Source of the DNA: a virus
Lineage: Duplodnaviria > Heunggongvirae > Uroviricota > Caudoviricetes
Reading direction: 5' to 3' (one strand)
Virus record (IMG/VR): IMGVR_UViG_3300045988_147970
DNA: 38,666 bases
Shown here: positions 8,500-36,366 of the stretch, one piece after another
How positions within the stretch are numbered: position 1 is the stretch's first letter
How the letters are laid out: each line of letters begins with the position of its first letter
Position numbers and translations under genes: made by a program
Notes under the pieces: generated by a model
What the model saw: the letters and a program-made list of their open reading frames with translations, nothing else
Databases searched by the model: none
What the model was told of the DNA's origin: nothing

Positions 8500-9080
8500 C
8501 CATTAGCAAGATACTGAACAAATCCCTCATGCGTTTCATGCGCGTCGTGGTACTGACGATAAACATCCAGCAACAATGCAATTTCCATATCCGTCGCGGG
8601 AATACGTTCTTTATCAATAGCCAGGTACTTAATTTGAACAACAGGGGAAGAATTATCGTCTTCTTCCTGCGGCTGTTCATCGCTTAACATTTCGTCAAGC
8701 TCTGCATCATTAAACCCAAGCAGATCAATATCAAAATCATCATCCATTAACTCTTTGACTTCTTCGGCCAGAAGCTGCATATCCCAGCCAGCATTTAAGG
8801 CCAGCTTGTTATCTGCAATCCTGTAAGCCTTCTTCTGTTTTTCAGAAAGGTTACTCAACCGAATCGCCGGAACTTTATCCATTTCCAGAATTTCGGCTGC
8901 TGCAAGCCGACCATGCCCCGCAATCAGTTCATTCTTTTCATCGATCAGCACAGGATTAGTGAAACCGAACTCACGGATACTGTTCACCAACTGTTCAACC
9001 TGCTCATCTGAATGAGTCCGTGAATTTTTGGCGTATCTGAGCAGCTTACCGACTGGTAAATATTCGATTTTTAGAGCCAT
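8490..9080 (-). CDS. ParB-like nuclease domain (ParB/Srx N-terminal domain) protein
   Basis: 196 aa with ParB N-domain box (LIAGHGRLAAA); stop overlaps the small terminase start; paralog of 11747..12370. Confidence 0.7.
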   Translation of the reverse strand: MALKIEYLPVGKLLRYAKNSRTHSDEQVEQLVNSIREFGFTNPVLIDEKNELIAGHGRLAAAEILEMDKVPAIRLSNLSEKQKKAYRIADNKLALNAGWDMQLLAEEVKELMDDDFDIDLLGFNDAELDEMLSDEQPQEEDDNSSPVVQIKYLAIDKERIPATDMEIALLLDVYRQYHDAHETHEGFVQYLANGCK

Positions 9081-10373: not shown

Positions 10374-11753
10374 CTACTTAATCAACGGCCGGAAAGCCGC
10401 CAGCACATCATCAGATCGTCCGATTGTTGAACCACCAGGCAACGGCAACTCAAACTCAAAACGAACAGCTTTCTCCAGACTCGCCCAACTAAGGGAATCA
10501 TCGTTAATGACGTGCAAATACCAGCTCTTACAGTTGAATATTGACCGCTTAATCCTGAAACCATGTACACGACACAACTGCTTCACTTCCTCATCAGAGT
10601 GAAACTTCTGGTAAAACCAGTGCCCCTTCCGGTACAACGCGGTAAAACCGTCATGATCAATAAAATAAAGCCGGCTTTTGGAACTCGCCGCTTGTGTTTG
10701 CTTCAGGACTGTTTCCAGTTCTCCACGGCTACGGCCAGAAAAGAATATTGACCCACCAGCTTTACACAGGCCTTTCAGAACCGTCAGAACGGACCATTCA
10801 GCCTCGACACTATCGACCGAGTTCAAAACGCTATCGCAAATCACGTAGTCGTAACGCCCTCGCGTTTTTAAGTCGTCCACCAGCGTATCAATCATCCGGT
10901 TTGTTGCGGCCCTATCCAGAGTGTTTCCAGCGCCCTTACGGCGGAAAAGCTCGAGATCATGCAGGTTATATCCCTTTGCCCTGAGCATTCGCGCGTAGTC
11001 TCCCTGCCCCGAACCAAAATCAATTCCTCTTGGCGTCTTGGCAATGATCGGGAGGATCAACGACTCATACAGATTTGATTTCAGGCTGCCACCATTACGC
11101 AACCGCATAAGCTGCGCATACGTCTGGATGTATGTTGTTTTCTCCAGATGAGAATACTCAAATACACCATAAGTTTTATTCAGATAACTTTGGTATTTTT
11201 CCTTCTCAACATCAGGGATCACAAACACCGTTAGCGGTGTGCGCGTCATTTTCGCTGCTAATGCATACTGAGCACAGTGAATAACCTCACCAGACTGAGT
11301 AGCAACACAACCACCCCACGGACCATACTTGATAACCAGTTCCGCTATGTTCTTTCGAACATATGCCATTTTCGCGCGCATATTGCCTGAGATCTGGCTT
11401 GCCGATACCTGAACAAAACCATGCTTATCTTCCAGACCGGACACCCTGCAACGCTCATCTCCGCTATCAAAATCCGTTCCGTTATGCAGTTGGTTAAACC
11501 GTACTTCGTCGTATACCGTCGTTTCACAGGGCAACACATACACCGCAGCACGCGTTATTCCCAACTTACGTAGCGCCTTCGTCCTTTGGTGTCCCGCCAC
11601 CAGCAAATCGCCGCGCACTATCAATGGCTTCACAAGCCCCAGCTCCCTGACGCTTTCCGCCAGCCTCGCAAGATCATCCTCACCGATAAAACGCGGGTTA
11701 TATTCCGCGCCGCGTAGGTGCGTTATGTCGTAATTGAGGTGAAGCATCAGCAC
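10374..11753 (-). CDS. ParB-like N-terminal domain fused to a class I SAM-dependent methyltransferase domain
   Basis: N-terminus has a ParB box (LLVAGHQRTKALRKLG); C-terminal half has SAM-MTase motif I (IDFGSGQGDYARML), an acidic motif II (YDYVICDSV) and GGSIFFSG; 459 aa. Confidence 0.65.
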   Translation of the reverse strand: MLMLHLNYDITHLRGAEYNPRFIGEDDLARLAESVRELGLVKPLIVRGDLLVAGHQRTKALRKLGITRAAVYVLPCETTVYDEVRFNQLHNGTDFDSGDERCRVSGLEDKHGFVQVSASQISGNMRAKMAYVRKNIAELVIKYGPWGGCVATQSGEVIHCAQYALAAKMTRTPLTVFVIPDVEKEKYQSYLNKTYGVFEYSHLEKTTYIQTYAQLMRLRNGGSLKSNLYESLILPIIAKTPRGIDFGSGQGDYARMLRAKGYNLHDLELFRRKGAGNTLDRAATNRMIDTLVDDLKTRGRYDYVICDSVLNSVDSVEAEWSVLTVLKGLCKAGGSIFFSGRSRGELETVLKQTQAASSKSRLYFIDHDGFTALYRKGHWFYQKFHSDEEVKQLCRVHGFRIKRSIFNCKSWYLHVINDDSLSWASLEKAVRFEFELPLPGGSTIGRSDDVLAAFRPLIK

Positions 11754-12370
11754 ACCTCCCCAGCCAGCAATGCGGATACAAATCCGATATAGCTGCCATT
11801 ATCATCAACATAACGAGACACCGCGCAGTCAAAACGATCCGCTTCCTCATCCGTTGCCGGGATTTTATGACCTCCAAATGACAGGTACTGAACTTTTACG
11901 CCTGATTTGGCCTCATCCTTCTCAAATGGGATATCCATACCCTCTGTGTCATCGTAGACCGCCGCACTCAATAAGTTATCCAGTTCGCGCTGAGTAAAAC
12001 CAATTGAGTCCAGAGCAAAATCATCGGCCGCAAGATCTGCAAGCTCCGCGCTTAACAACTCTTCATCCCAACCAGCATTCAGCGGAATACGGTTGTCGGC
12101 CAGACGATATGCCTTCTTCTGATTCTCCGTTAGCCCAGCCAGAACAATGCAGGGAACATCATCCATCCCCAACTGAGTGGCCGCAGCAATTCGACCATGA
12201 CCAGCAATTACAACGTTGTTCTCGTCTATCAGGATCGGATTAGTCCATCCGTACTCCTGTATGCTGGCAACAATCTGATCTACCTGCTCCACGGAGTGTG
12301 TGCGAGCGTTCTTTTCATAACCAATCAACACAGAAAGTGGTAAAGAAACCACATTAAGATGTTTTGTCAT
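11747..12370 (-). CDS. ParB-like nuclease domain protein (paralog of 8490..9080)
   Basis: 207 aa; ParB box (VIAGHGRIAAA); similar along its length to the 196-aa ParB-like protein, including the C-terminal KIPATDEE region. Confidence 0.7.
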   Translation of the reverse strand: MTKHLNVVSLPLSVLIGYEKNARTHSVEQVDQIVASIQEYGWTNPILIDENNVVIAGHGRIAAATQLGMDDVPCIVLAGLTENQKKAYRLADNRIPLNAGWDEELLSAELADLAADDFALDSIGFTQRELDNLLSAAVYDDTEGMDIPFEKDEAKSGVKVQYLSFGGHKIPATDEEADRFDCAVSRYVDDNGSYIGFVSALLAGEVC

Positions 12371-13703: not shown

Positions 13704-13777
13704 CCCATGTTCTCCTTTGTCTGGATGTAAAAAAGCCCCGGCAATTGCCGAGGCTCGTTGTTCGTTATCGTTACGGT

Positions 13778-13978
13778 TTAATGCTCGCGTCGTCCGGCGA
13801 CAACTTCGGATTTGTATTTCAGGTCGCCCAGCAAGAATTGCAGTTTAAGCATCTTTGCCGCCGTGTAGTTTCCTGATTCCACAACCTCTTTCATGAGGTC
13901 ATAAACGGCCGCAACATCATCAGCCAGGAACTCTTTGCGTTGCTGCTCAGTCGCACGTTTGAAGGAAATACGCATCAC
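13778..13978 (-). CDS. hypothetical protein
   Basis: 66-aa ORF; its start overlaps the upstream stop. Confidence 0.3.
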   Translation of the reverse strand: MMRISFKRATEQQRKEFLADDVAAVYDLMKEVVESGNYTAAKMLKLQFLLGDLKYKSEVVAGRREH

Positions 13979-14244
13979 TCATCATCTCCTGCCGCACATA
14001 CAACCTCACAAAAAACATCAGCGGAATGTTTCTTTTTGAATGAATGGCGCTCAAAACCGCACTCAATATCAGGCGCAAAAACATCCACCACATACGGTCT
14101 TTCAGAATGTTTGTTTTCCCAACGATAAACCGTAGTGACGTTGAAATGTTTTAACGCTTCACGGTACTCAACGCTGCCCGTCAGGTTTTTTGAGGTCAGG
14201 TATTGCAGGAGGTTTTTTACTACTTCACGGTCTTGTACTTTCAT
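13975..14244 (-). CDS. hypothetical protein, first gene after a duplicated operator-bearing promoter module
   Basis: 89-aa ORF; GGAG RBS; preceded by the ~104-bp module that is duplicated upstream of the DUF3560-like gene. Confidence 0.35.
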   Translation of the reverse strand: MKVQDREVVKNLLQYLTSKNLTGSVEYREALKHFNVTTVYRWENKHSERPYVVDVFAPDIECGFERHSFKKKHSADVFCEVVCAAGDDE

Positions 14245-14251
14245 CGGGTTA

Positions 14252-14355
14252 TCTCCGGTTTAACCAGGGCGGGTATCGCTCGGTTTCGGGTATAATCATA
14301 GGAAATTTTTTCCCACCTGCAAAGCACTTTTTATATAAATATATAATTATATAAT
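14252..14355. repeat. ~104-bp duplicated promoter-leader module, copy A (copy B at 21832..21935)
   Basis: ~93% identical to 21832..21935; each copy sits directly upstream of a minus-strand gene start and carries the AGGAAA-N3-TTTCC operator-like motif and AT-rich TATATAA repeats. Confidence 0.6.
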
Positions 14356-14356
14356 T

Positions 14357-14944
14357 CTATGCCACTTGCCAGAGAGCATCATGCAACTGGATACCTCCAT
14401 TGCACTGGTTGCCCCAGCCATGCCAACCATCAGGTAAATCACCGCGAGCAAACAGCTCAATACGAGGAACATCACCTAACAGCCTTACCAGCTTGTCACG
14501 AACCACATCAGGCTTCCGAGAATGCTCCAGACGAGGCGATGTAAACGACTGAATGATCCCCGCATCAAGGCGGGTCGGCAATTTGCCTTTTACCGCAAAC
14601 AAGCAATCTTCACTGTTTGCACGAGTCATATGCCCCATCCCCATCACCAGCTTATCTGGTTGTCGGCTACCACATTTGTTCCATGTGAAGCCCTTCATGG
14701 TCATAAGCCTGAATCCCCATGCTTTCACCACCAGCAACGCTTCTTCTGGCTGAGTCGGAACCCACCACATGGCCAACAAACACGATTCAGGATTAGCAAG
14801 CTGCCAGACAGGAATACGAGCAATATCCTCAGCTTTCATCGTTGGATACTTAAAACCAGCTCCACGATTCCCATCCTTACACTTATCTTTGTATTCCCAG
14901 GGGGGATCTGCATAAATCAGATTAAACAATGCAATTGCCTCCAT
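14357..14944 (-). CDS. N6-adenine DNA methyltransferase, MT-A70 family
   Basis: N-terminal IYADPPWEY (DPPW catalytic motif) is the MT-A70 signature; 195 aa. Confidence 0.8.
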   Translation of the reverse strand: MEAIALFNLIYADPPWEYKDKCKDGNRGAGFKYPTMKAEDIARIPVWQLANPESCLLAMWWVPTQPEEALLVVKAWGFRLMTMKGFTWNKCGSRQPDKLVMGMGHMTRANSEDCLFAVKGKLPTRLDAGIIQSFTSPRLEHSRKPDVVRDKLVRLLGDVPRIELFARGDLPDGWHGWGNQCNGGIQLHDALWQVA

Positions 14945-15252: not shown

Positions 15253-15328
15253 TGGTGGCCCCTACCGGATTTGAACCGATGACCGTGCGATTATGAGTCG
15301 CCTGCTCTAACCACTGAGCTAAGGGGCC
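15253..15328 (-). tRNA. tRNA with anticodon CAU, ileX-like (tRNA-Ile2 or Met); 3-prime CCA encoded
   Basis: Reverse complement GGCCCCTTAGCTCAGTGGTTAGAGCAGGCGACTCATAATCGCACGGTCATCGGTTCAAATCCGGTAGGGGCCACCA folds as a cloverleaf; the first ~42 nt match my recollection of E. coli ileX. Confidence 0.85.
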
Positions 15329-15497
15329 ATATTTGATCTGTTTGTCTGGTGTGGCGCCGCGCACGAAAATCCCAGCCAATAAATTCAGGATTTTTGGGCG
15401 CGGCGGCATATCAGACAAACATGGTTGATGCGTGCGCCCATGAGAAAAGCGCATAGAATGTTGTAACTATATATTTATATAATTATAGAAATATATA

Positions 15498-15707
15498 TTA
15501 CTTTCGGCAGTTGATTTCCCATGCCCTGTTATGAGCCAGAATATCTTTCTTTGTCTGGCGGTCCATAACATCGATGTCGTGATCAGTCAGGTAGATGGGC
15601 TTTACCCAATCACAGGCGGTATCAACCACCACCGGGACGCTTCCACGACTCCCGCAGCTCGCGATCAACATCGTCATCAGCCATATGGTTAACACTCTGC
15701 TGTACAT
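15498..15707 (-). CDS. o-spanin (Rz1-like outer-membrane lipoprotein)
   Basis: 69 aa with lipobox LIASC; reading frame overlaps the 3-prime end of the i-spanin gene. Confidence 0.55.
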   Translation of the reverse strand: MYSRVLTIWLMTMLIASCGSRGSVPVVVDTACDWVKPIYLTDHDIDVMDRQTKKDILAHNRAWEINCRK

Positions 15708-17117: not shown

Positions 17118-17149
17118 AAAAAAAAAGCCCCGCCGAAAAAGGCAGGGCT
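17118..17149 (-). terminator. rho-independent terminator immediately upstream of the holin gene (tR-prime-like)
   Basis: Minus-strand hairpin AGCCCUGCC-UUUUUC-GGCGGGGCU followed by a run of 8 U, ending ~14 nt before the holin start. Confidence 0.6.
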
Positions 17150-17490
17150 TCATAAAGCAACAAATTACGCGGTAATCGCTTAACGCAGTTTTACTACGTT
17201 AAATGAAACACTACACCCAGTTACCACCTAAAACAAGGTTTCCCCATAAAAAAACCTTCATATCGTGGTTAATCGATCAATAAAAAATCAATGTTCAACT
17301 TTTTACCAACCGAACATCCCGACCAGGACTTCCATAATATTCGCCGATATGCCACTGCTTAAGTTGAGTAATCTTCTCCAACTTAACTCCCATAGAGTCC
17401 AGTTTCTGCCATGTTTTCGGTTGTATGTGCTTCATTACCCGCTCTGAATATCTGAATACTGCTCGTAAGCGCATGGTTTCTCACTACAGC

Positions 17491-17898
17491 TTATATATGT
17501 TCACGACTGGACTTCCAGAATATCCACGCCAGATCAACATTCGGGTCCTGGTAATTCATCCCTTCGTTGGCACGAATCAATAATGTTTCATGGTTTTTAT
17601 CACCCGCATGAAACCTGACAAGTGCTTCGAACTTTTCGCGCCCATCATCCGGCACTACCACCGTTGGCGGCGCGGAGAATAGAGGTTTAGGTGATATTTC
17701 CGCACGTTTTGCGTATGCTTCAACTGTGTCAGGGTTAAACAGGATTATGTTTTCACCGCATTCCCACGCTACCGGCTCTGCTTCCAGTGATGCCAGAGCA
17801 ATTTCATAAGCACGGCGCTCAATATTGTCTCGGACGTCCAGGCTGCCTATGCGCTCTTTGATTTCTTTAATCAGTTCTTTGTCGGTTAAAGTGGTCAT
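17491..17898 (-). CDS. hypothetical protein (candidate late regulator by position)
   Basis: 135-aa ORF immediately upstream of the late-region leader and terminator; no motif recognised. Confidence 0.3.
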   Translation of the reverse strand: MTTLTDKELIKEIKERIGSLDVRDNIERRAYEIALASLEAEPVAWECGENIILFNPDTVEAYAKRAEISPKPLFSAPPTVVVPDDGREKFEALVRFHAGDKNHETLLIRANEGMNYQDPNVDLAWIFWKSSREHI

Positions 17899-18104
17899 TT
17901 GTTAATCCTCAAAACTTTATGCCCGGGCGCAAAAGCACGCGTTTTGTCGGCGCTTATTCGCCACCCATCTTTACGTGCCTCTTTTGCACAGCCAGCCCAT
18001 GACGTACCGATATATTCACCGAAGTCTGGTACTGGATATACACCTTCCGTACACTGGCGGCAGTCACAATAGAGATGCATGGTGTAACTTGCGGCAACAG
18101 CCAT
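17895..18104 (-). CDS. small Cys-rich protein (possible zinc-binding)
   Basis: Start at MAVAASY (residue 37 of the track ORF) with GGAG 8 nt upstream; contains CDCRQC. Confidence 0.3.
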   Translation of the reverse strand: MAVAASYTMHLYCDCRQCTEGVYPVPDFGEYIGTSWAGCAKEARKDGWRISADKTRAFAPGHKVLRINK

Positions 18105-18105
18105 A

Positions 18106-18297
18106 TCACTCTCCTTTAGTACGCAAGTGGTTTTTCCAGCGGTTTTGCGCCGCGCTGCGCTTATCTTTGACTCCCTCTCTGGCAATTCCAGAAAATGAAA
18201 ACAACACCACACGGCGATTGCTAACTCTCAACCACTGGCTGGGGTAGCAAAGTCTGTATACACGGGAAATAAGCATCTTTGCTTTACGGTTTTTCAT
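18106..18297 (-). CDS. hypothetical small basic protein
   Basis: 63-aa ORF; ATGA start/stop overlap with the upstream 58-aa ORF. Confidence 0.25.
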   Translation of the reverse strand: MKNRKAKMLISRVYRLCYPSQWLRVSNRRVVLFSFSGIAREGVKDKRSAAQNRWKNHLRTKGE

Positions 18298-18470
18298 CGC
18301 TTTGCTCTCCTGCGTCTCTTTGCTGCTCGTCGTGCCGCTGCAATACCGGTATGGCGGCGCTTTGGTGCCGGGATGATGTTGTCAGCCATCAGGACATGTG
18401 GCTTTGCAATTAGCGCAGAAGCCCAAAAACGAGTCGGGTACGGTAACAAGCCGATACATGCCACACGCAT
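18294..18470 (-). CDS. hypothetical small protein, 58 aa, highly basic C-terminus (not in the ORF track)
   Basis: Manually translated MRVACIGLLPYPTRFWASALIAKPHVLMADNIIPAPKRRHTGIAAARRAAKRRRRAKR; TAATG overlap with the upstream stop and ATGA overlap with the next start. Confidence 0.25.
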   Translation of the reverse strand: MRVACIGLLPYPTRFWASALIAKPHVLMADNIIPAPKRRHTGIAAARRAAKRRRRAKR

Positions 18471-19105
18471 TACTCACCTCCTTTGATGCGAATGCCAGCG
18501 GCGCGTGGCACATTAACTTCCACGATACGCACTGTTGGTTTGTACATCTCAATCGCTGTCAGCCAGTCAGCTCCTGTCATGCGCTTTTCCGCATCGCCAT
18601 TAGTCCACTGAACCGGTACACCAATAGCCTTCATCGCGATTTCTATTTCCCCGGCGATGGCGCTTTTTCCGCAACCAGTAAAACCAGAAACAACGACAAG
18701 AACTTCACCTTTGGCTGGTTTTATTTCCCGCGCTTCCAGTTCTGCTATGCGCTTACTTCCATCCGCGATTACTCCCTCGTAATACTCGCGTTGCTCGTTG
18801 AGTTTTGATTTTGCTTCCTCAAGCTCAACACGCAGCTTCCCTACCGTTAGCGCAATATCCTCGTTCTCCTGGTCGCGGCGTTTGATGTATTGCTGGTTTC
18901 TTTCCCGTTCATCCAGCAGTGCCAGCACGGTTTCTGGTCCGGTCAGAAATTTGAAGGCGTTGAGCGCATCAATATCCACACCGTAATCTTTAAGTTCCTG
19001 TTCACTTAACAAGTCATCATCAGCTGGCAACATTAACAGGCGTTCCATTGCTGGAGTTGCACGTTCCGCCACCTCACGCAGTGCCTGGTAATTAATTTCG
19101 CTCAC
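18470..19105 (-). CDS. Ead/Ea22-like protein with C-terminal Walker A-like motif
   Basis: N-terminal MSEINYQALREVAERATP matches the characteristic Ea22-like start; central coiled coil; C-terminal VLVVVSGFTGCGKS. Confidence 0.5.
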   Translation of the reverse strand: MSEINYQALREVAERATPAMERLLMLPADDDLLSEQELKDYGVDIDALNAFKFLTGPETVLALLDERERNQQYIKRRDQENEDIALTVGKLRVELEEAKSKLNEQREYYEGVIADGSKRIAELEAREIKPAKGEVLVVVSGFTGCGKSAIAGEIEIAMKAIGVPVQWTNGDAEKRMTGADWLTAIEMYKPTVRIVEVNVPRAAGIRIKGGE

Positions 19106-19376
19106 TGGCTGCCTCCTGCTTTTCTGCCTTCAACACCATGCGAGAACCATCATCCAGCTCCCACACTATCTCACCACCTTCAGCCATGACCAGTTGCCAC
19201 ACCAATTGAGCAGCCTCATTGGTAACATCACGACCTGGATCATTGCCAACGCGCATACGTCCACCTTCAACATCGCGCATTTTTGCCAGCATGATAGTTT
19301 TTGATAGCGGTGAAAAACCAAGCTGTAGCCGTGCGGAATTACTCACTGGTTGCCCCCTGAATACGTTTAAACTCAA
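19092..19376 (-). CDS. hypothetical protein
   Basis: 94-aa ORF in the operon. Confidence 0.3.
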   Translation of the reverse strand: MSLNVFRGQPVSNSARLQLGFSPLSKTIMLAKMRDVEGGRMRVGNDPGRDVTNEAAQLVWQLVMAEGGEIVWELDDGSRMVLKAEKQEAASERN

Positions 19377-20031
19377 TTACCCATACCCACGGGTTAGATA
19401 GCCAGTTCTCTTGCCCGTAAATACCGCGCCAGATATCACCAAAGCCAACGCGATAAACAGCTTCCGGTGGCGTAATTTTGTACGTCGCCGGAAATGCGCC
19501 TTCCGCTTTCGCATCTGCCTCGCTAATGTCATGCAGCCGTTCCACACGCACGTCGGTAATTTCCAGAAGAATGCGTGATGCCCATCGCGGCATGTGAATT
19601 GATGGACACCACCCGCCATCAAACTTTTCATTCACAGTGTGAGGTTTCCAGTCGGCATCATCGGGTATCGACCACAGGCCGTAATCACCAGGCTTTTGCT
19701 CGCAACTGGCCCGATAAATCCTTGCTGCGTTCTTCTCATCGCCACGACAAAGGTTGTCGTTCCAGTCCACACTGCAACCATCCTCATTGCCTAATATCGC
19801 CCACGCTTCACGGACCCATATGCGATCACCAACGTTACCGAACGGGCATAAACCATGTTCAGGTGCATCCATAACGTGGGTATAGACACCATTGCGTTTC
19901 TTTGTCGGTTTACGGATAACCAGGCAGTTATCGGCCCTGACATTTTTTACAGGTCGGCGAGTCTGCGTCTTCCTTCCTTCGAGGATGGCCCTGACCATCG
20001 CATCATTAAAAATCATGCCGCGCTCTTTCAT
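19339..20031 (-). CDS. ASCH-domain-like protein
   Basis: Start at MKERGMIF; AILEGRKTQTRR resembles the ASCH GxKTxTxR motif (as in E. coli YqfB) and C-terminal WVIEFK resembles the YqfB C-terminus. Confidence 0.45.
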   Translation of the reverse strand: MKERGMIFNDAMVRAILEGRKTQTRRPVKNVRADNCLVIRKPTKKRNGVYTHVMDAPEHGLCPFGNVGDRIWVREAWAILGNEDGCSVDWNDNLCRGDEKNAARIYRASCEQKPGDYGLWSIPDDADWKPHTVNEKFDGGWCPSIHMPRWASRILLEITDVRVERLHDISEADAKAEGAFPATYKITPPEAVYRVGFGDIWRGIYGQENWLSNPWVWVIEFKRIQGATSE

Positions 20032-20036
20032 CTTGC

Positions 20037-20402
20037 TCACTTCAACTCCTCCCGACGACGTTCCTGAAGCTCTAGCATTGCGGCTCGGAAATCCTGCCAC
20101 CATTCCTCATCTGCAACGGGGGTGTTTCGCTCCAGCACCTTGTCCGCATCAGCGATCAGGTTTGCCAGACTCTTGTCTGAAATCTTCGTTACCGGAGTCG
20201 TTGGTTGCTCAACCTGCCCGATAGGTTTTATCGTGCTCAAAAGGAGGCGACGGCTGGAAAGTGGCGACCCACAACGGCGCCCATCTTCCTTGCGATATGT
20301 TTCTTTCGGACCAACACACCAGGTTGTCGGCGTTTCGCGTAACTTCACTTTTTTCTCACCATCAATGGTGATGATTATTCCGGTATGGGTTTTGATGCTC
20401 AT
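20037..20402 (-). CDS. hypothetical protein
   Basis: 121-aa ORF in the operon. Confidence 0.3.
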   Translation of the reverse strand: MSIKTHTGIIITIDGEKKVKLRETPTTWCVGPKETYRKEDGRRCGSPLSSRRLLLSTIKPIGQVEQPTTPVTKISDKSLANLIADADKVLERNTPVADEEWWQDFRAAMLELQERRREELK

Positions 20403-20680
20403 GCCACAGCCCCTCTCAACGGCTTAACTTTGGCTAATAAGGTGTTAAACAACATGGAGTTAGGATTCATGCCAAATGGCAATTCCGGTTTAGCGGAGTA
20501 GTACAGGCAACCATTTATTTTCCTGGTTGTTATCTGTCCTTCGGCAACCATGCTTCTCAGTCTGCAACGCATAGAGTTCTGCGACACACCAATGTGCTCC
20601 GCGATTACGTCCACTTTTGAACATGGGTGATCGGTCAGGAAATTAATCACATCTTGGGGGTTAATAATTTTGCGTTTCAT
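20399..20680 (-). CDS. small putative winged-helix DNA-binding protein
   Basis: 93 aa; VDVIAEHIGVSQNSMRCRLRSMVAEGQI resembles a wHTH recognition region; AT-rich promoter-like sequence upstream. Confidence 0.3.
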   Translation of the reverse strand: MKRKIINPQDVINFLTDHPCSKVDVIAEHIGVSQNSMRCRLRSMVAEGQITTRKINGCLYYSAKPELPFGMNPNSMLFNTLLAKVKPLRGAVA

Positions 20681-20757
20681 TGTCGAGGCGTCCTTATAAA
20701 TTTATATAAATATATAATTCTATATAAGGCGGGAGACATCCCGCCGTAGGCTTACTG

Positions 20758-21825
20758 TCAGGCTTTCAATAGCGATTCTTTCAGATATCGGGCATCAGCC
20801 AGGGCGTTTGGAGTAATCTTGCGAACCCATGCATTACGGGTTGGACTCCACTTAAAGGCGCGTGATTTAAGCAGCGAACGAATGTTTGCCTCTGGTTTGC
20901 CTGGGAAATAAAACAGGATGCGGTTATCCTCTGGATCTATCTCCATAGAAAAGCCGTCGTATTCTTCGCGCTGTGCTCCTGTTACAGACTTGACCGATTC
21001 AAGCTCCTTAATACGGCTCTGTAGTCGTTTGATTTCGGCGTTATTGTTGCTCAGTGCGTATGAAGGGAATCCGATGTGCCCACAGAAATCTCCGGCCAGT
21101 AACTCTTTGGCTTCGCTTTCTGTAAACCTGAGATCGATTAATGCAGAAAGCTGCTGTAATTGGTCTTTTTTGTATTTGCGAATGGCCTTATTTGCGGCCT
21201 TCATTTTGACGTGTGACTTCATGCAGCCTTGCAGCTTACGAAGCAACTTAAATAGCGCATCAGGATCATCAGACGAAATTCCATTACGACCAACACCTGC
21301 GGCTTTGCTCTCGTAGTGTGATGCTTTACTTTCGCATTCAACAAACGCTTTTCTTAATAACGCATCAGCTTTAGACAAACGGCGGCGATGGCCTTTCGCG
21401 CTATAATGGTCAACTAAAATCGGCTGGCCTAACGGGATCACATCCAACAGGTCATGCGCTCGCTTATGCGCTACCGCACCTTCTTTTCTGGCTTTTTCTG
21501 CACGAGCAATATATCGGGCAAGACGCGCGTTCTGGCGTTCCTGATAGGTGTTTACGTAATCATCTCCGCGCTGCTGCTGTTCAAGCCATGCTTTGCGCAG
21601 ATCTTCTGTTACGTCCACCAGCTCCGCAGGGATACAACCAGTTTGGGCTTCATAAGAGTAACCATCCTCATAGATACGCCCATCATCTTCAACAAAGAAA
21701 AAGGTTTCGTGCTCATCGCTTTTGACCATACGACCATTAACATGGCGTAATAGGTAGCCAGTATCAGTGCTTAACAAGCTGTTAGGGTTGTTGATCCAGT
21801 CAGAAATAATTACTTGTTTATTCAT
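20758..21825 (-). CDS. DUF3560-like protein with N-terminal extension
   Basis: Start at MNKQVII (residue 51 of the track ORF) with GGAG RBS; motifs GQPILVDHYSAKGHRRR, SSDDPDALFKL, KAANKAI, DFCGHIGFPSYALSNNNAEIKR, FKWS match my recollection of DUF3560. Confidence 0.5.
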   Translation of the reverse strand: MNKQVIISDWINNPNSLLSTDTGYLLRHVNGRMVKSDEHETFFFVEDDGRIYEDGYSYEAQTGCIPAELVDVTEDLRKAWLEQQQRGDDYVNTYQERQNARLARYIARAEKARKEGAVAHKRAHDLLDVIPLGQPILVDHYSAKGHRRRLSKADALLRKAFVECESKASHYESKAAGVGRNGISSDDPDALFKLLRKLQGCMKSHVKMKAANKAIRKYKKDQLQQLSALIDLRFTESEAKELLAGDFCGHIGFPSYALSNNNAEIKRLQSRIKELESVKSVTGAQREEYDGFSMEIDPEDNRILFYFPGKPEANIRSLLKSRAFKWSPTRNAWVRKITPNALADARYLKESLLKA

Positions 21826-21831
21826 CAGATT

Positions 21832-21935
21832 TCTCCGGTTTAACCAGGGCGGGTATCGCTCGGTTTCGGGTATAACCTTAGGAAATTTTTTCCCACCCGT
21901 AAAGCACTTTTTATATAAATCTATAATTATATAAA
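21832..21935. repeat. ~104-bp duplicated promoter-leader module, copy B
   Basis: See copy A; upstream of the DUF3560-like gene start at 21825. Confidence 0.6.
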
Positions 21936-22018: not shown

Positions 22019-22034
22019 CAATGGTATACCATTG
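22019..22034. promoter_or_regulatory. 16-bp perfect palindrome CAATGGTATACCATTG, operator-like
   Basis: Lies ~60 bp upstream of the plus-strand regulator start in the divergent intergenic region; overlaps a -35-like TTGAAC. Confidence 0.5.
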
Positions 22035-22091
22035 AACATGGTATCGGCTGAATTTTACAATTAACACATTTTAAACAATTGGAGGTGCCAA

Positions 22092-22376
22092 ATGGCTAAA
22101 CCAAAATCTGAAATTGATGCTATTCGAGCATTAACAGAAGTAACAATTAAAGGTTTTGAGCAGGTTGCTCAGGCATTAGTTGATATGAGAGAAGCTCAGG
22201 GAAAAGTCGCACGAGCAACATATAATGGATTAACCTCCTCAGGAAAATCTCGCTATGTTGCATCGCTAGTAGAGGAAGTAGGATCACAAGCTGAAGTAAG
22301 CCGCATGTTAAATATCACACCTGGGCGCGTTAGCCAGCTTATGAAGTCCGAAAAAAACCGCAAAAATGGTAAGTAA
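22092..22376 (+). CDS. putative DNA-binding regulator; the only convincing plus-strand gene
   Basis: 94 aa; GGAGGTG RBS 5 nt upstream; C-terminal HTH-like SQAEVSRMLNITPGRVSQLMK; 16-bp perfect palindrome in its promoter region. Confidence 0.45.
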   Translation: MAKPKSEIDAIRALTEVTIKGFEQVAQALVDMREAQGKVARATYNGLTSSGKSRYVASLVEEVGSQAEVSRMLNITPGRVSQLMKSEKNRKNGK

Positions 22377-22380
22377 ATAA

Positions 22381-22403
22381 GTAAGGCCCCAATGGGGCCT
22401 TAC
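22381..22403. terminator. bidirectional rho-independent terminator between convergent genes
   Basis: Near-perfect hairpin GTAAGGCCCC-AAT-GGGGCCTTAC flanked by A/T-rich sequence on both sides. Confidence 0.6.
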
Positions 22404-22409
22404 ATTATG

Positions 22410-22709
22410 TTAGACATGGAACGCTACTCGCTTTCCTGTAGGAAGCTCAACATCCAGGCTTAATTTGCCTCCCATAGCTTCAACGTAACGCTTTAATGTC
22501 GCCAGCTTTAAATCATTTCCGCGCTGCTCCAGCTTTGTTACTGCTGGCTGGCTTATACCCATCGCCTCAGCAACCTGTTTTTGTGATAACTGGAGTTCTT
22601 CACGCATCATCTGCAAGCCGACCTCAAGAATCATCTCATCTGCCATTTCTTTAATTCGCGCCTGGCTTTCAGGTGAACGGCTGGCAATCACCTCATCTAA
22701 TGTTCTCAT
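22410..22709 (-). CDS. HTH XRE-family antitoxin (HigA-like)
   Basis: 99 aa; HTH QKQVAEAMGISQPAVTKLEQ; start overlaps the toxin stop by 1 nt (ATGA). Confidence 0.65.
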   Translation of the reverse strand: MRTLDEVIASRSPESQARIKEMADEMILEVGLQMMREELQLSQKQVAEAMGISQPAVTKLEQRGNDLKLATLKRYVEAMGGKLSLDVELPTGKRVAFHV

Positions 22710-23056
22710 TACTTGCTCTCCAGTGTGTTCAGATGTGCTGCAAACTCATCCTCAGCTATACGCACCAGTTTTTTATAAAACCGCTTATCGTTACTTTTGT
22801 CTCCTGCACAAAGAACGATGGCCCGACGAATCGGATCGAACGCATAAAAGGCTCTTATCGGACGGCCAGAAAACTGAACGCGAAGCTCTTTCATATTTTT
22901 GTACCGAGAACCTTTTACGGTATCGGCATATGGCCTGGGTAACTCAGGTCCGTAAACCTGTAGATTTTTCAAATCAGCCAAAACCTTTTCCTGAAGAGCC
23001 TCTTCTTGCTCATTTAGCCAGTCGTCAAATCGCTGGCTAAAAAGTACCGTCCACAT
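22709..23056 (-). CDS. RelE/HigB-superfamily toxin, phage Gp49-like
   Basis: Start at MWTV with AGGA RBS; ADTVKGSRYKNMKELRV...AFYAFDPIRRAIVLCAGDK...KRFYKKLVRIAEDEF matches the Gp49-like toxin pattern. Confidence 0.65.
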   Translation of the reverse strand: MWTVLFSQRFDDWLNEQEEALQEKVLADLKNLQVYGPELPRPYADTVKGSRYKNMKELRVQFSGRPIRAFYAFDPIRRAIVLCAGDKSNDKRFYKKLVRIAEDEFAAHLNTLESK

Positions 23057-23300
23057 GCTCAATCCTATAACCTGTAGTTTATACCACTGACTATATAACC
23101 CGTAGGTTATAATTTCAAGAAAAACGGGGCTATTTAACATAATGGACGTTATCGGCACCACCGGATCACCGTTCATTGTCGGATCTAAAAAATCCGCTCA
23201 AAAGATCATGTTTTCCTGGGCGTTTTCCACCGTTTTTTATGTTGCTTATTTGTTAATGAAATCTCGTTTTCAGTTTCGCCTCATTTTCGACGCGAAAGCC

Positions 23301-23591
23301 CTATTTTTGTGACTTTACTCCTGGCATATGGACTTCCCAGCGACGAATCCCCATAGCTGCGCAAAAATCAGCCACATAATTCAATCCCGCCCATTCGCGG
23401 ATACCACCACGGGCTTTTTCAATGAAAACGGCAATCCCTTTTTTATTGAGAGCAAAAAGCCGCCAGCTTTTTGTCACTTCGTCCTGGGTAGCCACAACAC
23501 AAGTGAAAGCTCCCATGCGATACAGGTCCAAGAACTCTTTGCGTGTTTTGCGTACAAGTTCCATAACAAACCTCATATTTGCATGTTTCAA
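23301..23591 (-). CDS. hypothetical protein
   Basis: 96-aa ORF whose start overlaps the stop of the upstream HTH gene. Confidence 0.3.
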   Translation of the reverse strand: MKHANMRFVMELVRKTRKEFLDLYRMGAFTCVVATQDEVTKSWRLFALNKKGIAVFIEKARGGIREWAGLNYVADFCAAMGIRRWEVHMPGVKSQK

Positions 23592-23887
23592 ACATCTGTT
23601 TTGTTATCAATGAAGATTAACCCTAACCCAGCGAAGTAACACAGCAGCGCCCAGGCTGCATACGGAATGCTGGATCTGGATGTGGACTCCTTTAACATCT
23701 GCCAGTTGCGAACATTGCGACTATCTTTTAAGCCTAGTTTTTTGGCTAACTGCGAGCCGCTCATTCCGGTCAGGCCAATGACTGCCCGAACTTCTCCACA
23801 TGTAGGAGATTCCCATTCATCCGCTTTTTTTAAACAAGCCGGATTCAACATTTTTAAAACAGTATCTTTATCCATAACCATCTCCAT
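23588..23887 (-). CDS. XRE-like HTH protein with C-terminal hydrophobic segment
   Basis: HTH-like GMSGSQLAKKLGLKDSRNVRNWQ; C-terminal IPYAAWALLCYFAGLGLIFI; palindrome AGGAAA-N3-TTTCCT just upstream of the start. Confidence 0.4.
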   Translation of the reverse strand: MEMVMDKDTVLKMLNPACLKKADEWESPTCGEVRAVIGLTGMSGSQLAKKLGLKDSRNVRNWQMLKESTSRSSIPYAAWALLCYFAGLGLIFIDNKTDV

Positions 23888-23906
23888 TTATTATATCTAC
23901 GATGGT

Positions 23907-23921
23907 AGGAAATCTTTTCCT
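23907..23921. promoter_or_regulatory. operator-like perfect inverted repeat AGGAAA-TCT-TTTCCT
   Basis: Perfect 6-bp inverted repeat with 3-bp spacer ~20 bp upstream of the HTH gene start; near-identical copies at 14300..14314 and 21880..21894. Confidence 0.5.
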
Positions 23922-24368
23922 ATGTGGCAATAGAAATTTACTACATTGCGTATAAGACAAGTTTTCTATGTCTAATAGGAAATGATGTTTCTTACATTTT
24001 ATCGCGTTCTGATGGCTACTGTGTGCGTATTTATCGACGTTTATTGATAAGGCTCGCCCCTTCCTCCTGCAAAGCCCGGCCGTAGGCCTTATTTCGGCCT
24101 TATATAAATTGATTTTGTATAGTTCGAAACGTGCCGTTTCGAAAAGGATGATCAGGCTGCTCCATGCCTCCGGCAAGTGCCGGAGGAGGTATATTTGAGC
24201 GTAGCGACTCGAACCGGCGCGAGCTTTAGCTCGCTGCAAGGGCGAACATATTCACAGGCAAAGCCTGTGTAAGTTAAATAAAGAAAGTCTTAATAAAAGA
24301 AAGTGATTTTGCATTTATTTGTTTAGTGCATCTATTATAAAAAACCATTTGCATATACATATCAGAAC

Positions 24369-24518: not shown

Positions 24519-25367
24519 TTAATGTTGGAGTGATTTCCAGGTCTTTCTTAACCTGTTATAACGCTGCTCAACGAGGGATCGTAAATATGCAAGGTCAGCA
24601 CCAGGATACATGCCATCAGCAAATTCCTGACTAACCTCTCTGGTGATTTGATGACGAAGTTCGGCCTCTCCCTTTTCCCGAACAAGACGCGCAGCTCTCT
24701 CCGCTGCTTTCTGTTTTGCCTTTATCTCTCTGGCCGTCTTCCTCTGACGCCATACATTCTCCATCTGCTCCTGAATAACAATACGCTTATAATCAGCCTC
24801 CGTTATCGCTTTTTTAAGCCGTTCGCTATTCTTCGCATTGAAGTAATTAAGTTTCTGGCTAACCGCACGTCTCCATGCTTGTTCAGTAATACCAACGGTT
24901 TCCAGCAGTTGATCACGAATCTCTATTTTCGCTGGCCAATACTGTTTATTCACCCGATCCCAGCGACGTTCATAATCAATAAAACCTAACGCTTTCAGTT
25001 GCGACAACGCCCTTGTACAGCGCGTTATAGACTTGTTCCCAGCTTCGGATACGGTAGACAGGCCGCAAAAATCAGCCAACGCCTCAGCACTAGCCAGAAC
25101 CCGCTTAGAAATGATGTTTACATGGTGCAAAATCGCAGCGATCACAGCATTAATCGCCCGACGACGATGCTCGTTTATCCGGCGCTTCCGCTCTGACGGT
25201 TGATTAACGTAGAACGCAACCTCACACGTAAGATCACGCCCATTAATGCGCTGTAAAGCATCAGATAACACCAGCGGCAGCTTGTGCGTATGGTGCTTTG
25301 GAGGCTGGAACTCCGGCGACAAATTACAAACGTAAGCTGAACGTAGAGACGGCATTGGTCTATCCAT
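24519..25367 (-). CDS. repA: replication initiator RepA, IncFII RepA1 family
   Basis: AINAVIAAILHHVNIISKRVLASAEALADFCGLSTVSEAGNKSITRCTRALSQLKALGFIDYE aligns with my recollection of R100 RepA1. Start set at MDRP; the track ORF extends 44 codons further upstream in frame. Confidence 0.8.
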   Translation of the reverse strand: MDRPMPSLRSAYVCNLSPEFQPPKHHTHKLPLVLSDALQRINGRDLTCEVAFYVNQPSERKRRINEHRRRAINAVIAAILHHVNIISKRVLASAEALADFCGLSTVSEAGNKSITRCTRALSQLKALGFIDYERRWDRVNKQYWPAKIEIRDQLLETVGITEQAWRRAVSQKLNYFNAKNSERLKKAITEADYKRIVIQEQMENVWRQRKTAREIKAKQKAAERAARLVREKGEAELRHQITREVSQEFADGMYPGADLAYLRSLVEQRYNRLRKTWKSLQH

Positions 25368-25382
25368 ATGTTCGCTCTTGCG

Positions 25383-25495
25383 TCCACGGAAAACCAACGT
25401 ATAATGGGAGTTGTCGAGGCGCCCATGGATTGTTGTTGTTGGTTTTCCGTGGATGTCGCAAGAAGCCCGCAGATTTATCTGCGGGCTTTTTGTTT
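25383..25495 (+). ncRNA. candidate CopA-like antisense RNA opposite the repA leader
   Basis: 16-bp perfect inverted repeat (25383..25398 with 25438..25453) followed by hairpin AGCCCGCAGA-TTTA-TCTGCGGGCT and a T-run on the plus strand; boundaries inferred. Confidence 0.4.
25464..25495 (+). terminator. rho-independent terminator on the plus strand, antisense to the repA leader
   Basis: Perfect 10-bp stem with 4-nt loop followed by TTTTTGTTT. Confidence 0.55.
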
Positions 25496-25862
25496 CCATA
25501 TCTGGTCACTTTCCAACCAGACACCCACAATCATAACCACGTTACGTGGTTTTAAGAGAACTCTACCACAACACTTTCGGTCATGCACGAAGTCTCTCAC
25601 TGATCGAACGATAATCCACCAGTAAAAGGATCTAAATTGGATCTCGTTTTGCGAGCATCATACTACTGGCCTAACTCCAGTCAATGATTCCCAGCCAGAA
25701 ACCTGCGGTAAACTCATCGTTCAGCAATATGCTGTCCGGCTTCAAAGATAAGGTGACATCATCCCTTAACAGCGCGGCCAGCTCCGTTAAAGGGTTGTTT
25801 TGACTTAATGCAAAACCGCTAATAAACATATTGGCGGTTTTGTTCCTTAAATCATCTTGCCT

Positions 25863-33581: not shown

Positions 33582-36366
33582 AACTTAATCTCCGTTGTTG
33601 GAACATATGAGCACTCAATTTCTTCTCAAAATCAGAATATCCCGCATCTAATGCTCTTTTAGCTGCCGCCTCAGTTTCCTTTGGTGAACCAGCCGGAAGA
33701 TTGATTACAGGTGAATAGGTTATTCCACCAGTCACAGCGTTAACGTTCTGGCGAGGTCCAGAAGTCCCAGCGGCAGATATCCCGTGAGGTGATAAATTTG
33801 ATTGCCCGAACTTGCTTGCTATTGCATTCTGTAAGCTGTTATTCCTGCTAACACCTGATGCCAGAGTAGTCATTATTGCACCACCTGACTTTGTTAGCTG
33901 TGAGAATGGACCTTTTTTCGCGTCAGAGAACGGTAAATACTCACGTACAGAAGAAAAAACGCCTTTCACTTCATTAATTAAAGCATTTGCTTTTGATTTT
34001 ATCCCAGTGATTAACGTCTCAATTATTTTTGCGCCTGACTCACTCCAGTTTATTCCAGATAAATAAGTCGTTACAGATTGGAATGCTCTTATAAAGAGTC
34101 CAACTGGTGAAAAACGCATAAAAACAGATACCAGTGTATCTATGATTTTCTTTCCTGTTTCGCTCCAGTTAATGCCAGAAAGGTAATTTGTTGTAATTTT
34201 AAATGCTTTAATTAAGAACGGAAGCGGAGACATCCATTTAAAAGCACTAATTAATGTACTGTAAATTCTTACTCCTGCCGAACTCCAGTTTATGTTGGAA
34301 AGATAATCCCATGCTTTACCAAACATAGATATAATCCATCCATTGAGGTCAAAGTTTAAGATAAAGTTTTTTATAGCCTCAAATGATTTAACTGTATATT
34401 CCTTAACAGAAGGCCAAACTCTGACAGCATAATCTCTGATCTTATCCCAATTCTGATAGAGCAATATTCCTGCGGCAACCAGCGCAGATATAGCCATCTG
34501 AATCCACCCGAAGGGTGTTAGCTTTGTCGCTACAGATAAAGCCAGCATAGCTACCCTACACGCTATAACCACACTTTTCATGGTTAGAAACGCACCTGCC
34601 GCCATCACTATCTGAGACACAAAATTGGGGTTGTTAGCTACAAATTCACTAATTTTTGTAATCAGCGGAACCAAAACACTAAGCGCGGCATTCAAAGCAG
34701 GTTGCAAGGCCTGACCAAAACTTAATGATGCATTGCTAGCCTGAATACGTAATTGTTTCAATCGCTCCGCATTATCTTTCGTTATGTTGGCAAAATCGCG
34801 GTCAATAACAGCACTTCCAGCTCCAAGAGATGTTGCTTTGATTCTCTGGTATTCCTTCCAGTTTTGAATCATCGGACGAACAAAGTTCTGAACCTGCATA
34901 TCGCCAAATAGTTCACCAAGTAACTTCTGATCTCCGTTCTTAGTCATTTTCATGACAGAATGCATTGCAGCTTCGAATGGATTCTTCCCTTTTTTCTGCG
35001 CTGTTGTAACAATTTTATATAAATCTACACCGAAATTTTTCTTTGCTTTTTTTAGTGTTTCAGGGGAAAGTATTTTTGCCAAAAAGTTGTTCATATTATT
35101 AGCAGCCTCATCCGAAGTTGCAGCCCCCTTGCGAGCTATCTGCAAAGCTGCACCCATCGTCGCGGCTGCTTCTTTACCTCCCATTTTTAATGCCTGGAAC
35201 TGAGCACCAAGCACAGGAAGATTTTTGGCCATATCTTTAAATTCAAAGTTCCCCTCTTTCCCTGCCTGAACCAGAATCCCCATTGCAGACTTCATTTGAG
35301 ATGGATCAATCTTCAATGAGTCACTTAATGTAAATGATGCTTTCGAGACATCGAGGATATCAGAGCCAGTAGCTGTAGCTGTTCGCCCAATAGTTAGTAG
35401 ATTCGCCTGAGCCTCTTTATAATCCTGCCCAGCAGCGACGAGAAAACCCTGAGCGGCCTGAATATCAGATGCAAACTGGTTGGTAGCCGTTCCGGTAACA
35501 AGCATCGCCTGCCCCATCGCCTGAACTTCTTCCGGCTTCATATCTGCCGTAAGACCAATCATTTTGTTTTCACGATTGAAATTTGCTGCATTGTTAGCAG
35601 CAGCAAATGCACCAGCCGCTACAGCACCAGTTTGTAATCCTGACCTTACAAGTTGACTCTTTGCCTCACCAAGATGCTCTCGCTTCAATTCACGCTGCCT
35701 TTCCAACGCGCGGTTTAACTCCTCCTGAGCACGTTTTACTGCAAGAACATTTTTCCGTGCTTCAGCCAACGCATTTTTATAGCTGTTAATTTTATCAATA
35801 CGTTGTTTTTCTAATGCCCGGTTAAGTTCCTCCTGCTGTTTTTTCACTTGCTGAACATTTGCTCTGGCTAAAGCCAAAGCCGTTCTGTAGCGGTTAACCT
35901 GCTCAACGCTACGGGCCTGAGCCTCACGATTACGATCAATGCTGGCTTTAAGCTCTTTCTCTCTTGAGGCCAAAGCTCTGGCAGATGTATCAGCTCCCTG
36001 ATAGGCAGACTTTAAAGCGGCCAGTTCTTCACGCTGAGAACGTAGTGATGCTCGTAAATTTGATGAATGTGTTTTTGCCTTCTCAAAGTCACGAAGCATC
36101 GCTCTGGTTGGATTGGCCGTGTTTTTTATTTGCTTCTGTAACTCTTCAACGCGAGCGGCAGCTTTATGATATTCGAGGGCAGTCTGTCCAACCTTTACTT
36201 TTACAGATTGTAGCTTTTGAATTTCCCCATGTTCTTTCGTTAACCCAGCAAGCTCTGCATTTAATTTAGCAACAGCCTGATTAGCTGTAGTAAAACTTTT
36301 GGGGAGAGAGGCGGCAACTTTGCCGCCAATTTCAAAAGCCAGCTTAAAGTTCTTATTGCTGGCCAT
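33574..36366 (-). CDS. tail tape measure protein
   Basis: 930 aa, extensive coiled-coil N-terminal half, downstream of the frameshifted chaperone pair. Confidence 0.85.
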   Translation of the reverse strand: MASNKNFKLAFEIGGKVAASLPKSFTTANQAVAKLNAELAGLTKEHGEIQKLQSVKVKVGQTALEYHKAAARVEELQKQIKNTANPTRAMLRDFEKAKTHSSNLRASLRSQREELAALKSAYQGADTSARALASREKELKASIDRNREAQARSVEQVNRYRTALALARANVQQVKKQQEELNRALEKQRIDKINSYKNALAEARKNVLAVKRAQEELNRALERQRELKREHLGEAKSQLVRSGLQTGAVAAGAFAAANNAANFNRENKMIGLTADMKPEEVQAMGQAMLVTGTATNQFASDIQAAQGFLVAAGQDYKEAQANLLTIGRTATATGSDILDVSKASFTLSDSLKIDPSQMKSAMGILVQAGKEGNFEFKDMAKNLPVLGAQFQALKMGGKEAAATMGAALQIARKGAATSDEAANNMNNFLAKILSPETLKKAKKNFGVDLYKIVTTAQKKGKNPFEAAMHSVMKMTKNGDQKLLGELFGDMQVQNFVRPMIQNWKEYQRIKATSLGAGSAVIDRDFANITKDNAERLKQLRIQASNASLSFGQALQPALNAALSVLVPLITKISEFVANNPNFVSQIVMAAGAFLTMKSVVIACRVAMLALSVATKLTPFGWIQMAISALVAAGILLYQNWDKIRDYAVRVWPSVKEYTVKSFEAIKNFILNFDLNGWIISMFGKAWDYLSNINWSSAGVRIYSTLISAFKWMSPLPFLIKAFKITTNYLSGINWSETGKKIIDTLVSVFMRFSPVGLFIRAFQSVTTYLSGINWSESGAKIIETLITGIKSKANALINEVKGVFSSVREYLPFSDAKKGPFSQLTKSGGAIMTTLASGVSRNNSLQNAIASKFGQSNLSPHGISAAGTSGPRQNVNAVTGGITYSPVINLPAGSPKETEAAAKRALDAGYSDFEKKLSAHMFQQRRLSFG

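Follow-up and report, generated by a model that had tools for sequence, protein, structure and literature searches.

Regulatory systems built on the small repressor KorC are well known from IncP-1, IncU and IncL plasmids. In the IncP-1 plasmids RK2/RP4, R751 and pLME1, a small HTH protein acts through OC, a 17-bp operator of the frame TAGG-N9-CCTA within the promoter, and the kil-kor regulon comprises several promoters with near-identical promoter-leader cassettes, the repressor's own operon being under the shared operator as well. RP4 KorC acts on the promoters of klcA, kleA, and kleC (PMC12365149), and of all RP4 genes klcA, a target of repression by KorA and KorC, is induced most strongly when the plasmid enters a recipient (PMC7314908). 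In RA3, five promoters are under the coordinated control of KorC (PMC7414963), and in pOXA-48 the predicted KorC site falls within the promoter of the korC operon, between its -35 and -10 hexamers (PMC12365149).

Here we analyzed a stretch of viral DNA of 38,666 nucleotides (hereafter, the window), which is a ~38.6-kb phage-plasmid that encodes an IncFII-type RepA and a contractile, P2-like tail. It resembles the IncP-1 plasmids in encoding a homologous small HTH protein, in carrying 17-bp operators of the same frame within promoters, and in having near-identical promoter-leader cassettes at several promoters, with the presumptive repressor's operon under the shared operator. From sequence comparison, we consider it very probable that these palindromes are KorC-type operators, that they are bound by the protein encoded next to one of them, and that they act negatively.

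The window encodes, besides the IncFII-type repA gene (24519-25499, minus strand), lysis genes, a terminase, a portal, a capsid, and P2-like tail genes, as well as a HigB/Gp49-HigA toxin-antitoxin pair (22410-23176, minus strand), which is a plasmid addiction module. A perfect bidirectional terminator with 11-bp arms (22381-22403) is common to the HigBA pair and a convergent gene for a 94-aa protein. A tRNA gene (15256-15328, minus strand, 67 bits), whose counterpart in a Yersinia phage relative is tRNA-Met, lies between the lysis genes and an MT-A70 methyltransferase gene, and the tape-measure gene contains three 42-nt copies at a spacing of 120 nt (34025-34306, 71% identity), which look like an internal protein repeat. 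Near-identical relatives are nonmobilizable 47- to 49-kb plasmids of Escherichia coli, one of them in E. coli ATCC 25922, and the Yersinia phages vB_YpM_39, 41, and 44. The pSLy3 phage-plasmid group was considered as a name for this family and rejected, since pSLy3 belongs to the SSU5 supergroup (PMC7969092).

Probable operator sites and promoters

The original prediction held that three promoters share one palindromic operator, and all three sites were found where it had placed them. AGGAAATCTTTTCCT, at 23907-23921, is a perfect palindrome of 15 bp, and AGGAAATTTTTTCCC is present twice (14300-14314 and 21880-21894). All three extend by one base per side to a 17-mer, TAGGAAA-N3-TTTCCYA (14299-14315, 21879-21895, and 23906-23922), a pattern for which 0.00 sites were expected from 100 dinucleotide-preserving shuffles. 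When the 38,666-nt window was scanned with up to two mismatches, the kind of motif search that had been suggested as a check, no extra copy of the 17-mer was found beyond these three. The sites and the genes next to the perfect one are as follows.

23906..23922, operator 1 (site C): perfect palindrome TAGGAAATCTTTTCCTA with 7-bp arms and a 3-bp center, in the promoter of the korC-like gene
21879..21895, operator 2 (site B): TAGGAAATTTTTTCCCA (transcribed strand, TGGGAAAAAATTTCCTA), with one arm mismatch
14299..14315, operator 3 (site A): TAGGAAATTTTTTCCCA, with one arm mismatch
23902..23930, minus strand: promoter of the korC-like operon, with -35 TTGCCA (23930-23925), a 17-bp spacer, and -10 TACCAT (23907-23902)
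23588..23887, minus strand: predicted KorC-family repressor gene (99 aa, or 95 aa, as relatives annotate it, if translation begins at 23875)
23301..23591, minus strand: 96-aa ORF overlapping the korC-like stop (phrog_4595; function unknown)

Two other candidates were rejected. A one-mismatch match at 1133-1147 lies in coding sequence, is out of the register of the 17-mer, and would need three mismatches. The 19-bp look-alike TAGGAAATGATGTTTCTTA (23976-23994), which has a 5-nt center and lies ~55 bp upstream of the korC-like operator, was read as chance because it is not conserved in the distant relatives (L005-L011). Three further perfect 17-bp palindromes were observed near repA (24125-24141, 24253-24269, and 25535-25551), of which CGAAACGTGCCGTTTCG and CACAGGCAAAGCCTGTG are downstream of the gene, in the presumed origin region, and AACCACGTTACGTGGTT is 36 nt upstream of its start.

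With hexamers assigned from sequence only, each of the three sites occupies the entire spacer (17 bp) of a sigma-70-like promoter on the minus strand. A promoter scan found the promoters of site C (TTGCCA-17-TACCAT, 23930..23902) and site A (TTTGCA-17-TATGAT, 14323..14295), and that of site B was assigned by register (TTTACG-17-TAAGGT, 21903..21875), in agreement with the earlier placement of sites A and B between -35-like and -10-like hexamers. In every case the 17-mer begins 2 nt past the -35 hexamer, and its terminal TA forms the first two bases of the -10 hexamer. From the edge of the perfect palindrome, the distance is 19 nt to the ATG at 23887, in line with the ~20 bp to the HTH gene first reported, and 31 nt to the start annotated in relatives, the alternative ATG at 23875.

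The -10 hexamers at sites C and B (TACCAT and TAAGGT) are weak, matching three or four of the six consensus positions, as might be seen if the KorC-like protein acted from the spacer as an activator or a dual regulator in the manner of MerR. We regard this as highly improbable, since the spacers are 17 bp long here versus the 19 to 20 bp usual for MerR-type activation, and the -10 hexamers at the corresponding position are good in relatives and in IncP-1 plasmids (TATGGT, TAATAT, and TATAAT). Besides, the characterized KorC proteins are repressors (PMC7414963, PMC12365149, and PMC7314908).

The KorC-like regulator and its probable operators in relatives and plasmids

The 99-aa protein is, by sequence comparison, a homologue of KorC. 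It showed ~51% identity to annotated IncP-1 korC genes on plasmids (tblastn, E value of 4e-14) and 48% identity over 80 aa to KorC of pLME1 (BLASTP, E value of 2e-18), and weaker tblastn matches were obtained with genes annotated korC on other replicon types, e.g., IncR and IncHI1B. No Pfam or NCBIfam model detected the protein. An AlphaFold2 model (pLDDT, 82.6; pTM, 0.76) predicts an XRE-type HTH with helices at residues 30-40, 44-50, 57-64, and 76-85, of which 57-64 is the third HTH helix. When this model was searched with Foldseek, the best match among solved structures was the HTH domain of AcrIF24 (31% identity; TM score, 0.68), followed by Aca1 on palindromic DNA, Aca2, restriction-modification controller C-proteins, and HipB; a solved KorC structure was not among the matches. 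The family profile likewise matched AcrIF24 (E value of 2e-7) and Aca3 (E value of 1.7e-3). The korC-like gene and the 96-aa ORF, which are probably cotranscribed, make up one of the three transcription units that would be under the operator, and a counterpart of the 96-aa ORF also follows the korC-like gene in several relatives. In the Yersinia phages vB_YpM_39/41/44, the regulator is annotated merely as "hypothetical."

In contigs of 45 to 48 kb from Citrobacter, Enterobacter, Klebsiella, and Salmonella, the KorC-like protein is 67 to 88% identical, and TAGGAAA-N3-TTTCCTA lies directly upstream of its gene despite diverged upstream flanks. Within the operator footprint of relatives, the 7-bp arms are invariant, whereas the central 3 bp (AGA, AAA, ATA, or TAT) and the flanks vary. 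The "ccatc" past the operator is retained in relatives, which is consistent with the TACCAT -10 hexamer; indeed, "CCTAccatc" and a TTGCnA -35 hexamer are kept at the korC-like promoter across five lineages. In IMG/VR, all of the nine loci encoding a KorC-like relative belong to the same phage-plasmid family and likewise keep the operator pattern. Throughout the phage collections searched, KorC-like genes were confined to this family of ~47- to 49-kb enterobacterial phage-plasmids.

Two other proteins encoded near site B, the plus-strand 94-aa YdaS-like HTH protein (22092-22376) and the HigA-type antitoxin (22410-22709), bear HTH signatures as well, and the gene of the former diverges from the site B promoter in a switch-like layout. 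It is nevertheless very unlikely that either of them binds the palindromes. The 94-aa gene is missing from the Citrobacter, Klebsiella, Salmonella, and Enterobacter relatives that retain the operators, and the Enterobacter relatives have a HicB-like gene in place of HigBA, whereas the operator upstream of the korC-like gene stays. Besides, the promoter of the 94-aa gene bears another palindrome, CAATGGTATACCATTG, which is perfect over 16 bp (22019-22034), overlaps the -35 hexamer of a plus-strand promoter (TTGAAC-18-TACAAT, 22032-22061), and is probably that gene's own operator. Only the korC-like gene accompanies its upstream site in every lineage examined; the other candidate regulators do not. 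The earlier suggestion that one regulator, possibly the adjacent HTH protein, serves all three sites thus gains support from sequence comparison, namely, from the KorC homology, the shared operator frame, and the co-occurrence of gene and site.

The shared frame emerged from loci around annotated korC genes, which were scanned for palindromes of the 7-3-7 form. Upstream of the antirestriction gene klcA, we found TAGGACATTTTGCCCTA in the IncP-1 plasmid pLME1 and TAGGGCATTATGCCCTA in the IncP-1-like metagenome contig L012. Upstream of kleA, pLME1 has TAGGGCATTTTGCCCTA, a sequence that also lies upstream of an antirestriction gene in plasmII of Xanthomonas albilineans, and pS163-2.1 has TAGGACAAAATGTCCTA upstream of a kleA-like gene. 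A plasmid of Pseudomonas bubulae carries three sites of the TAGGGCTTTAAGCCCTA type, among them sites that precede its antirestriction gene and kleA. In these five other korC-bearing plasmid lineages, the palindromes are all in the frame TAGGnnn-N3-nnnCCTA, i.e., TAGG-N9-CCTA. Where both hexamers are readable, the plasmid site lies 2 to 3 nt past the -35 hexamer, for example, TTGACG-at-TAGGACATTTTGCCC-TAATAT, and in every such promoter the terminal TA of the site opens the -10 hexamer. We take TAGGGCATAATGCCCTA to be the OC operator of RK2, and we presume from this sequence and from the positions upstream of klcA and kleA that the plasmid palindromes correspond to the published OC sites.

The third HTH helix varies with the operator arm: RN(V/L)RNWQ goes with AGGAAA, RT(V/I)RRW with AGGGCA or AGGACA, and RQIRRWT with AGGGCT, and residues R57, R60, and W62 are invariant across the operator classes. 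This correlation comprises three clades and is confounded by phylogeny; it fits the idea that the outer TAGG may be read by the conserved residues and the inner bases by the variable ones. Since the protein is ~48% identical to a characterized KorC and the inner bases are AAA versus GCA, our assignment of the sites to this protein draws on co-occurrence.

Promoter-leader cassettes, predicted target operons, and full-size relatives

Sites A and B lie within a direct repeat of 103 nt (14252-14354 and 21832-21934) that is 95% identical, and each belongs to one of two paralogous copies of a promoter-leader cassette of ~110 nt. The cassettes and the operons behind them are arranged as follows.

14245..14354, minus strand: cassette A, with AT-rich repeats, -35 TTTGCA (14323-14318), operator, -10 TATGAT (14300-14295), leader, and SD, followed by the ATG at 14244
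13733..14244, minus strand: operon A, with an 89-aa gene (13975-14244), a 66-aa gene (13778-13978), and a strong terminator (13756..13733)
21826..21934, minus strand: cassette B, with AT-rich 8-bp repeats, -35 TTTACG (21903-21898), operator, and -10 TAAGGT (21880-21875), followed by the ATG at 21825
17124..21825, minus strand: operon B, with a DUF3560/primase-like gene (20758-21825), a 93-aa MarR-like gene, ~9 small ORFs, and a terminator (17151..17124)

Because sites A and B belong to one duplicated cassette, the window holds two independent occurrences of the operator and not three, and the similarity between these two sites proves little by itself; independent support is supplied by the relatives. 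The original count of three promoters is thus to be qualified: sites are present at all three, but two of them represent a single duplicated cassette, and full-size relatives have four. In pKFS-D13_3 (48.8 kb) and vB_YpM_39 (49.0 kb), the korC-like, 126-aa, DUF3560, and 89-aa genes each have an operator in their promoter, so that the number three may be particular to this assembly.

The duplication also raises the question of whether the palindromes have an operator function at all, as sites A and B could have been carried passively within the 95%-identical repeat, or the arms could pair as a short RNA or DNA hairpin, 6 to 7 bp long and A/U rich. This is the least probable of the alternatives considered. 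The site at the korC-like promoter is outside the cassette, and in other lineages its arms are invariant and its center variable amid diverged flanks; the TAGG-N9-CCTA frame recurs in unrelated korC plasmids; and the position in the spacer places the site upstream of any transcript from these promoters.

Downstream of the -10 hexamer, the cassettes continue into a conserved leader (minus strand, 14245-14294 in cassette A and 21826-21874 in cassette B), which comprises ~50 nt and in cassette B has a predicted hairpin and is followed by the SD GGAG. As in the promoter regions of IncP-1 klcA and kleA, the phage-plasmid cassettes have AAAGTGCTT ahead of the -35 hexamer, the operator at an equal position, and a leader that ends in ...AAACCGGAGAnnnnCCGATG. 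The 58-nt leader of a Citrobacter cassette aligned best, among 40,450 positions, with the klcA leader of contig L012 (64% ungapped identity; z of ~6.8), and the window's own leader showed 60% with the register shifted by 1 nt. These comparisons indicate that the phage-plasmid cassette leader is homologous to the IncP-1 klcA and kleA leaders. Folded as single sequences, all versions of the leader gave a hairpin at a similar place and a small hairpin including the SD, but the shuffle z scores ranged only from -0.7 to -2.4. In the leader alignment, RNAalifold detected neither a consensus hairpin nor any other consensus structure, and the leader matched no Rfam family, the sole Rfam match in the window being the tRNA.

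Where the IncP-1 promoters carry the KorA operator GTTTAGCTAAA, the cassettes have three or four tandem copies of an 8-bp unit, nAWTTATA. Such units lie just upstream of both cassette -35 hexamers (14328-14354 and 21908-21934), and we also observed them upstream of the tRNA gene and the 93-aa MarR-like gene (15468-15503 and 20695-20730); in relatives they flank parA (46588-46680 and 47353 in contig L014). The units could be UP elements, or they could be sites for a second regulator or a centromere-binding protein. The 82-aa gene that follows parA in relatives matched no family.

The genes behind the cassettes include no klcA or kle homologues and gave no Pfam matches. The 89-aa product did not align with KleA, and its gene was confined to this phage-plasmid family in a tblastn search. 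Downstream of and around cassette A, there is a cluster encoding three proteins with a ParB/Srx N-terminal domain, one of which is a fusion with a methyltransferase domain, and the MT-A70 methyltransferase (8490-9080, 10374-11753, 11747-12370, and 14357-14944), which may have DNA modification or antirestriction functions.

Aligned to pKFS-D13_3, the window falls into two segments, whose 112-nt overlap falls exactly on cassette B, and ~8.8 kb between them is missing. The junction in the window is at 21822-21933, and its counterparts in L014 are at 2800-2911 and 42725-42836. In full-size relatives, the missing part encodes a CI-like repressor (HTH and S24-like), ParA, the 82-aa protein, and a Rha-family protein and also includes the 126-aa gene and an early operon for a Ref nuclease and DUF1064. 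Of 74 complete E. coli genomes that gave matches, none has the junction in one piece, and pGF31-D (39 kb) was rejected as an example of the shortened layout, as its deletion differs. The ends of the window repeat 54 nt (31-84 and 38613-38666), as expected of a circular assembly, and the break falls within the tail sheath gene; the first 30 nt neither matched the sequence preceding the other end copy nor aligned to relatives. Given the junction search, the end overlap, and the unmatched first 30 nt, the shortened layout is either a unique cassette-to-cassette recombinant or a repeat collapse in the assembly. The operator assignment is unaffected by which of the two applies.

Proposed circuit and comparison with known systems

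In the circuit that we propose, a dimer of the KorC-type protein would bind the 17-bp palindrome TAGGAAA-N3-TTTCCTA. Because the site takes up the whole spacer and extends over the first two -10 positions, the bound repressor would exclude sigma-70 RNA polymerase, i.e., act by promoter occlusion. Operator 1, the perfect site, is a putative autoregulation site at which the protein would repress its own gene, and the one-mismatch sites of the cassettes would bring about repression of the two-gene operon A (89 aa and 66 aa) and the longer, DUF3560-led operon B. By analogy with IncP-1 kil-kor, entry of the DNA into a repressor-free cell would result in a burst of expression, which would be shut down as the repressor accumulates. 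A role of the target genes in such a burst or in establishment is much less certain, and an entry burst of establishment genes is an analogy, since the targets are not homologues of klcA or kle.

The element appears to work like the IncP-1 kil-kor regulon and yet is not that regulon. The inner arms are AAA here versus GCA or ACA in IncP-1, and two or three positions of the recognition helix are different. No KorA or KorB genes were found in the window or its relatives, and the KorA operator is absent too. Furthermore, the system resides here on a tailed phage-plasmid that has an IncFII RepA, and not on a conjugative plasmid. The phage-plasmid P1 offers another comparison: its C1 protein is a master immunity repressor that controls many scattered promoters through an asymmetric 17-bp operator. 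C1 is an unrelated protein, and the likeness lies in one repressor with dispersed promoters on a phage-plasmid. As full-size relatives carry the separate CI-like repressor, the KorC-like protein would be a second layer of control.

Among the other KorC systems, RA3 (IncU) likewise has one small repressor for several backbone promoters (PMC7414963), and the predicted site in pOXA-48 (IncL-M) implies autoregulation, as we propose here (PMC12365149). The KorC proteins of RA3 and pOXA-48/IncL-M are ~30 to 40% identical to the 99-aa protein. Here the best site is at the regulator's own promoter, unlike in RA3, where the korC promoter reportedly is constitutive (PMC7414963). Aca repressors, the AcrIF24 HTH domain, and controller C-proteins are also small XRE-type HTH dimers that bind palindromes within strong promoters, which are silenced after an initial burst; with these, only the fold and the regulatory logic are in common. 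No anti-CRISPR or restriction-modification gene was identified beside the sites, and the downstream ORFs have no annotated function.

What is new, as far as sequence comparison indicates, is a KorC system on a tailed phage-plasmid, an apparent AGGAAA specificity versus AGGGCA, AGGACA, or AGGGCT elsewhere, and homology of the whole cassette with IncP-1. A literature search gave no paper linking KorC to phage-plasmids in substance. More tentatively, the ~110-nt unit might be a portable "entry-burst" cassette common to IncP-1-type plasmids and this family, whose targets would be new antidefense or establishment factors; this is a possibility to which we give distinctly less credence than to the operator assignment. 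Equally tentatively, the 89-aa and 66-aa ORFs, the DUF3560 gene, and the 126-aa ORF of relatives would be such targets, expressed on entry and then silenced. The cassettes might also be recombination hot spots that reshape the genome, as the junction of the ~8.8-kb deletion lies inside one of them.

For KorC proteins in general, the natural variants of operator and recognition helix (AGGAAA, AGGGCA, and AGGGCT) could be used to dissect specificity. A control module of conjugative plasmids, comprising a repressor, an operator design, and a promoter-leader cassette, appears to have moved between plasmids and phage. For the widespread but unstudied family of ~47- to 49-kb enterobacterial phage-plasmids, this provides a concrete, testable circuit, and the small genes that would be under burst-type control are candidates for antidefense functions.
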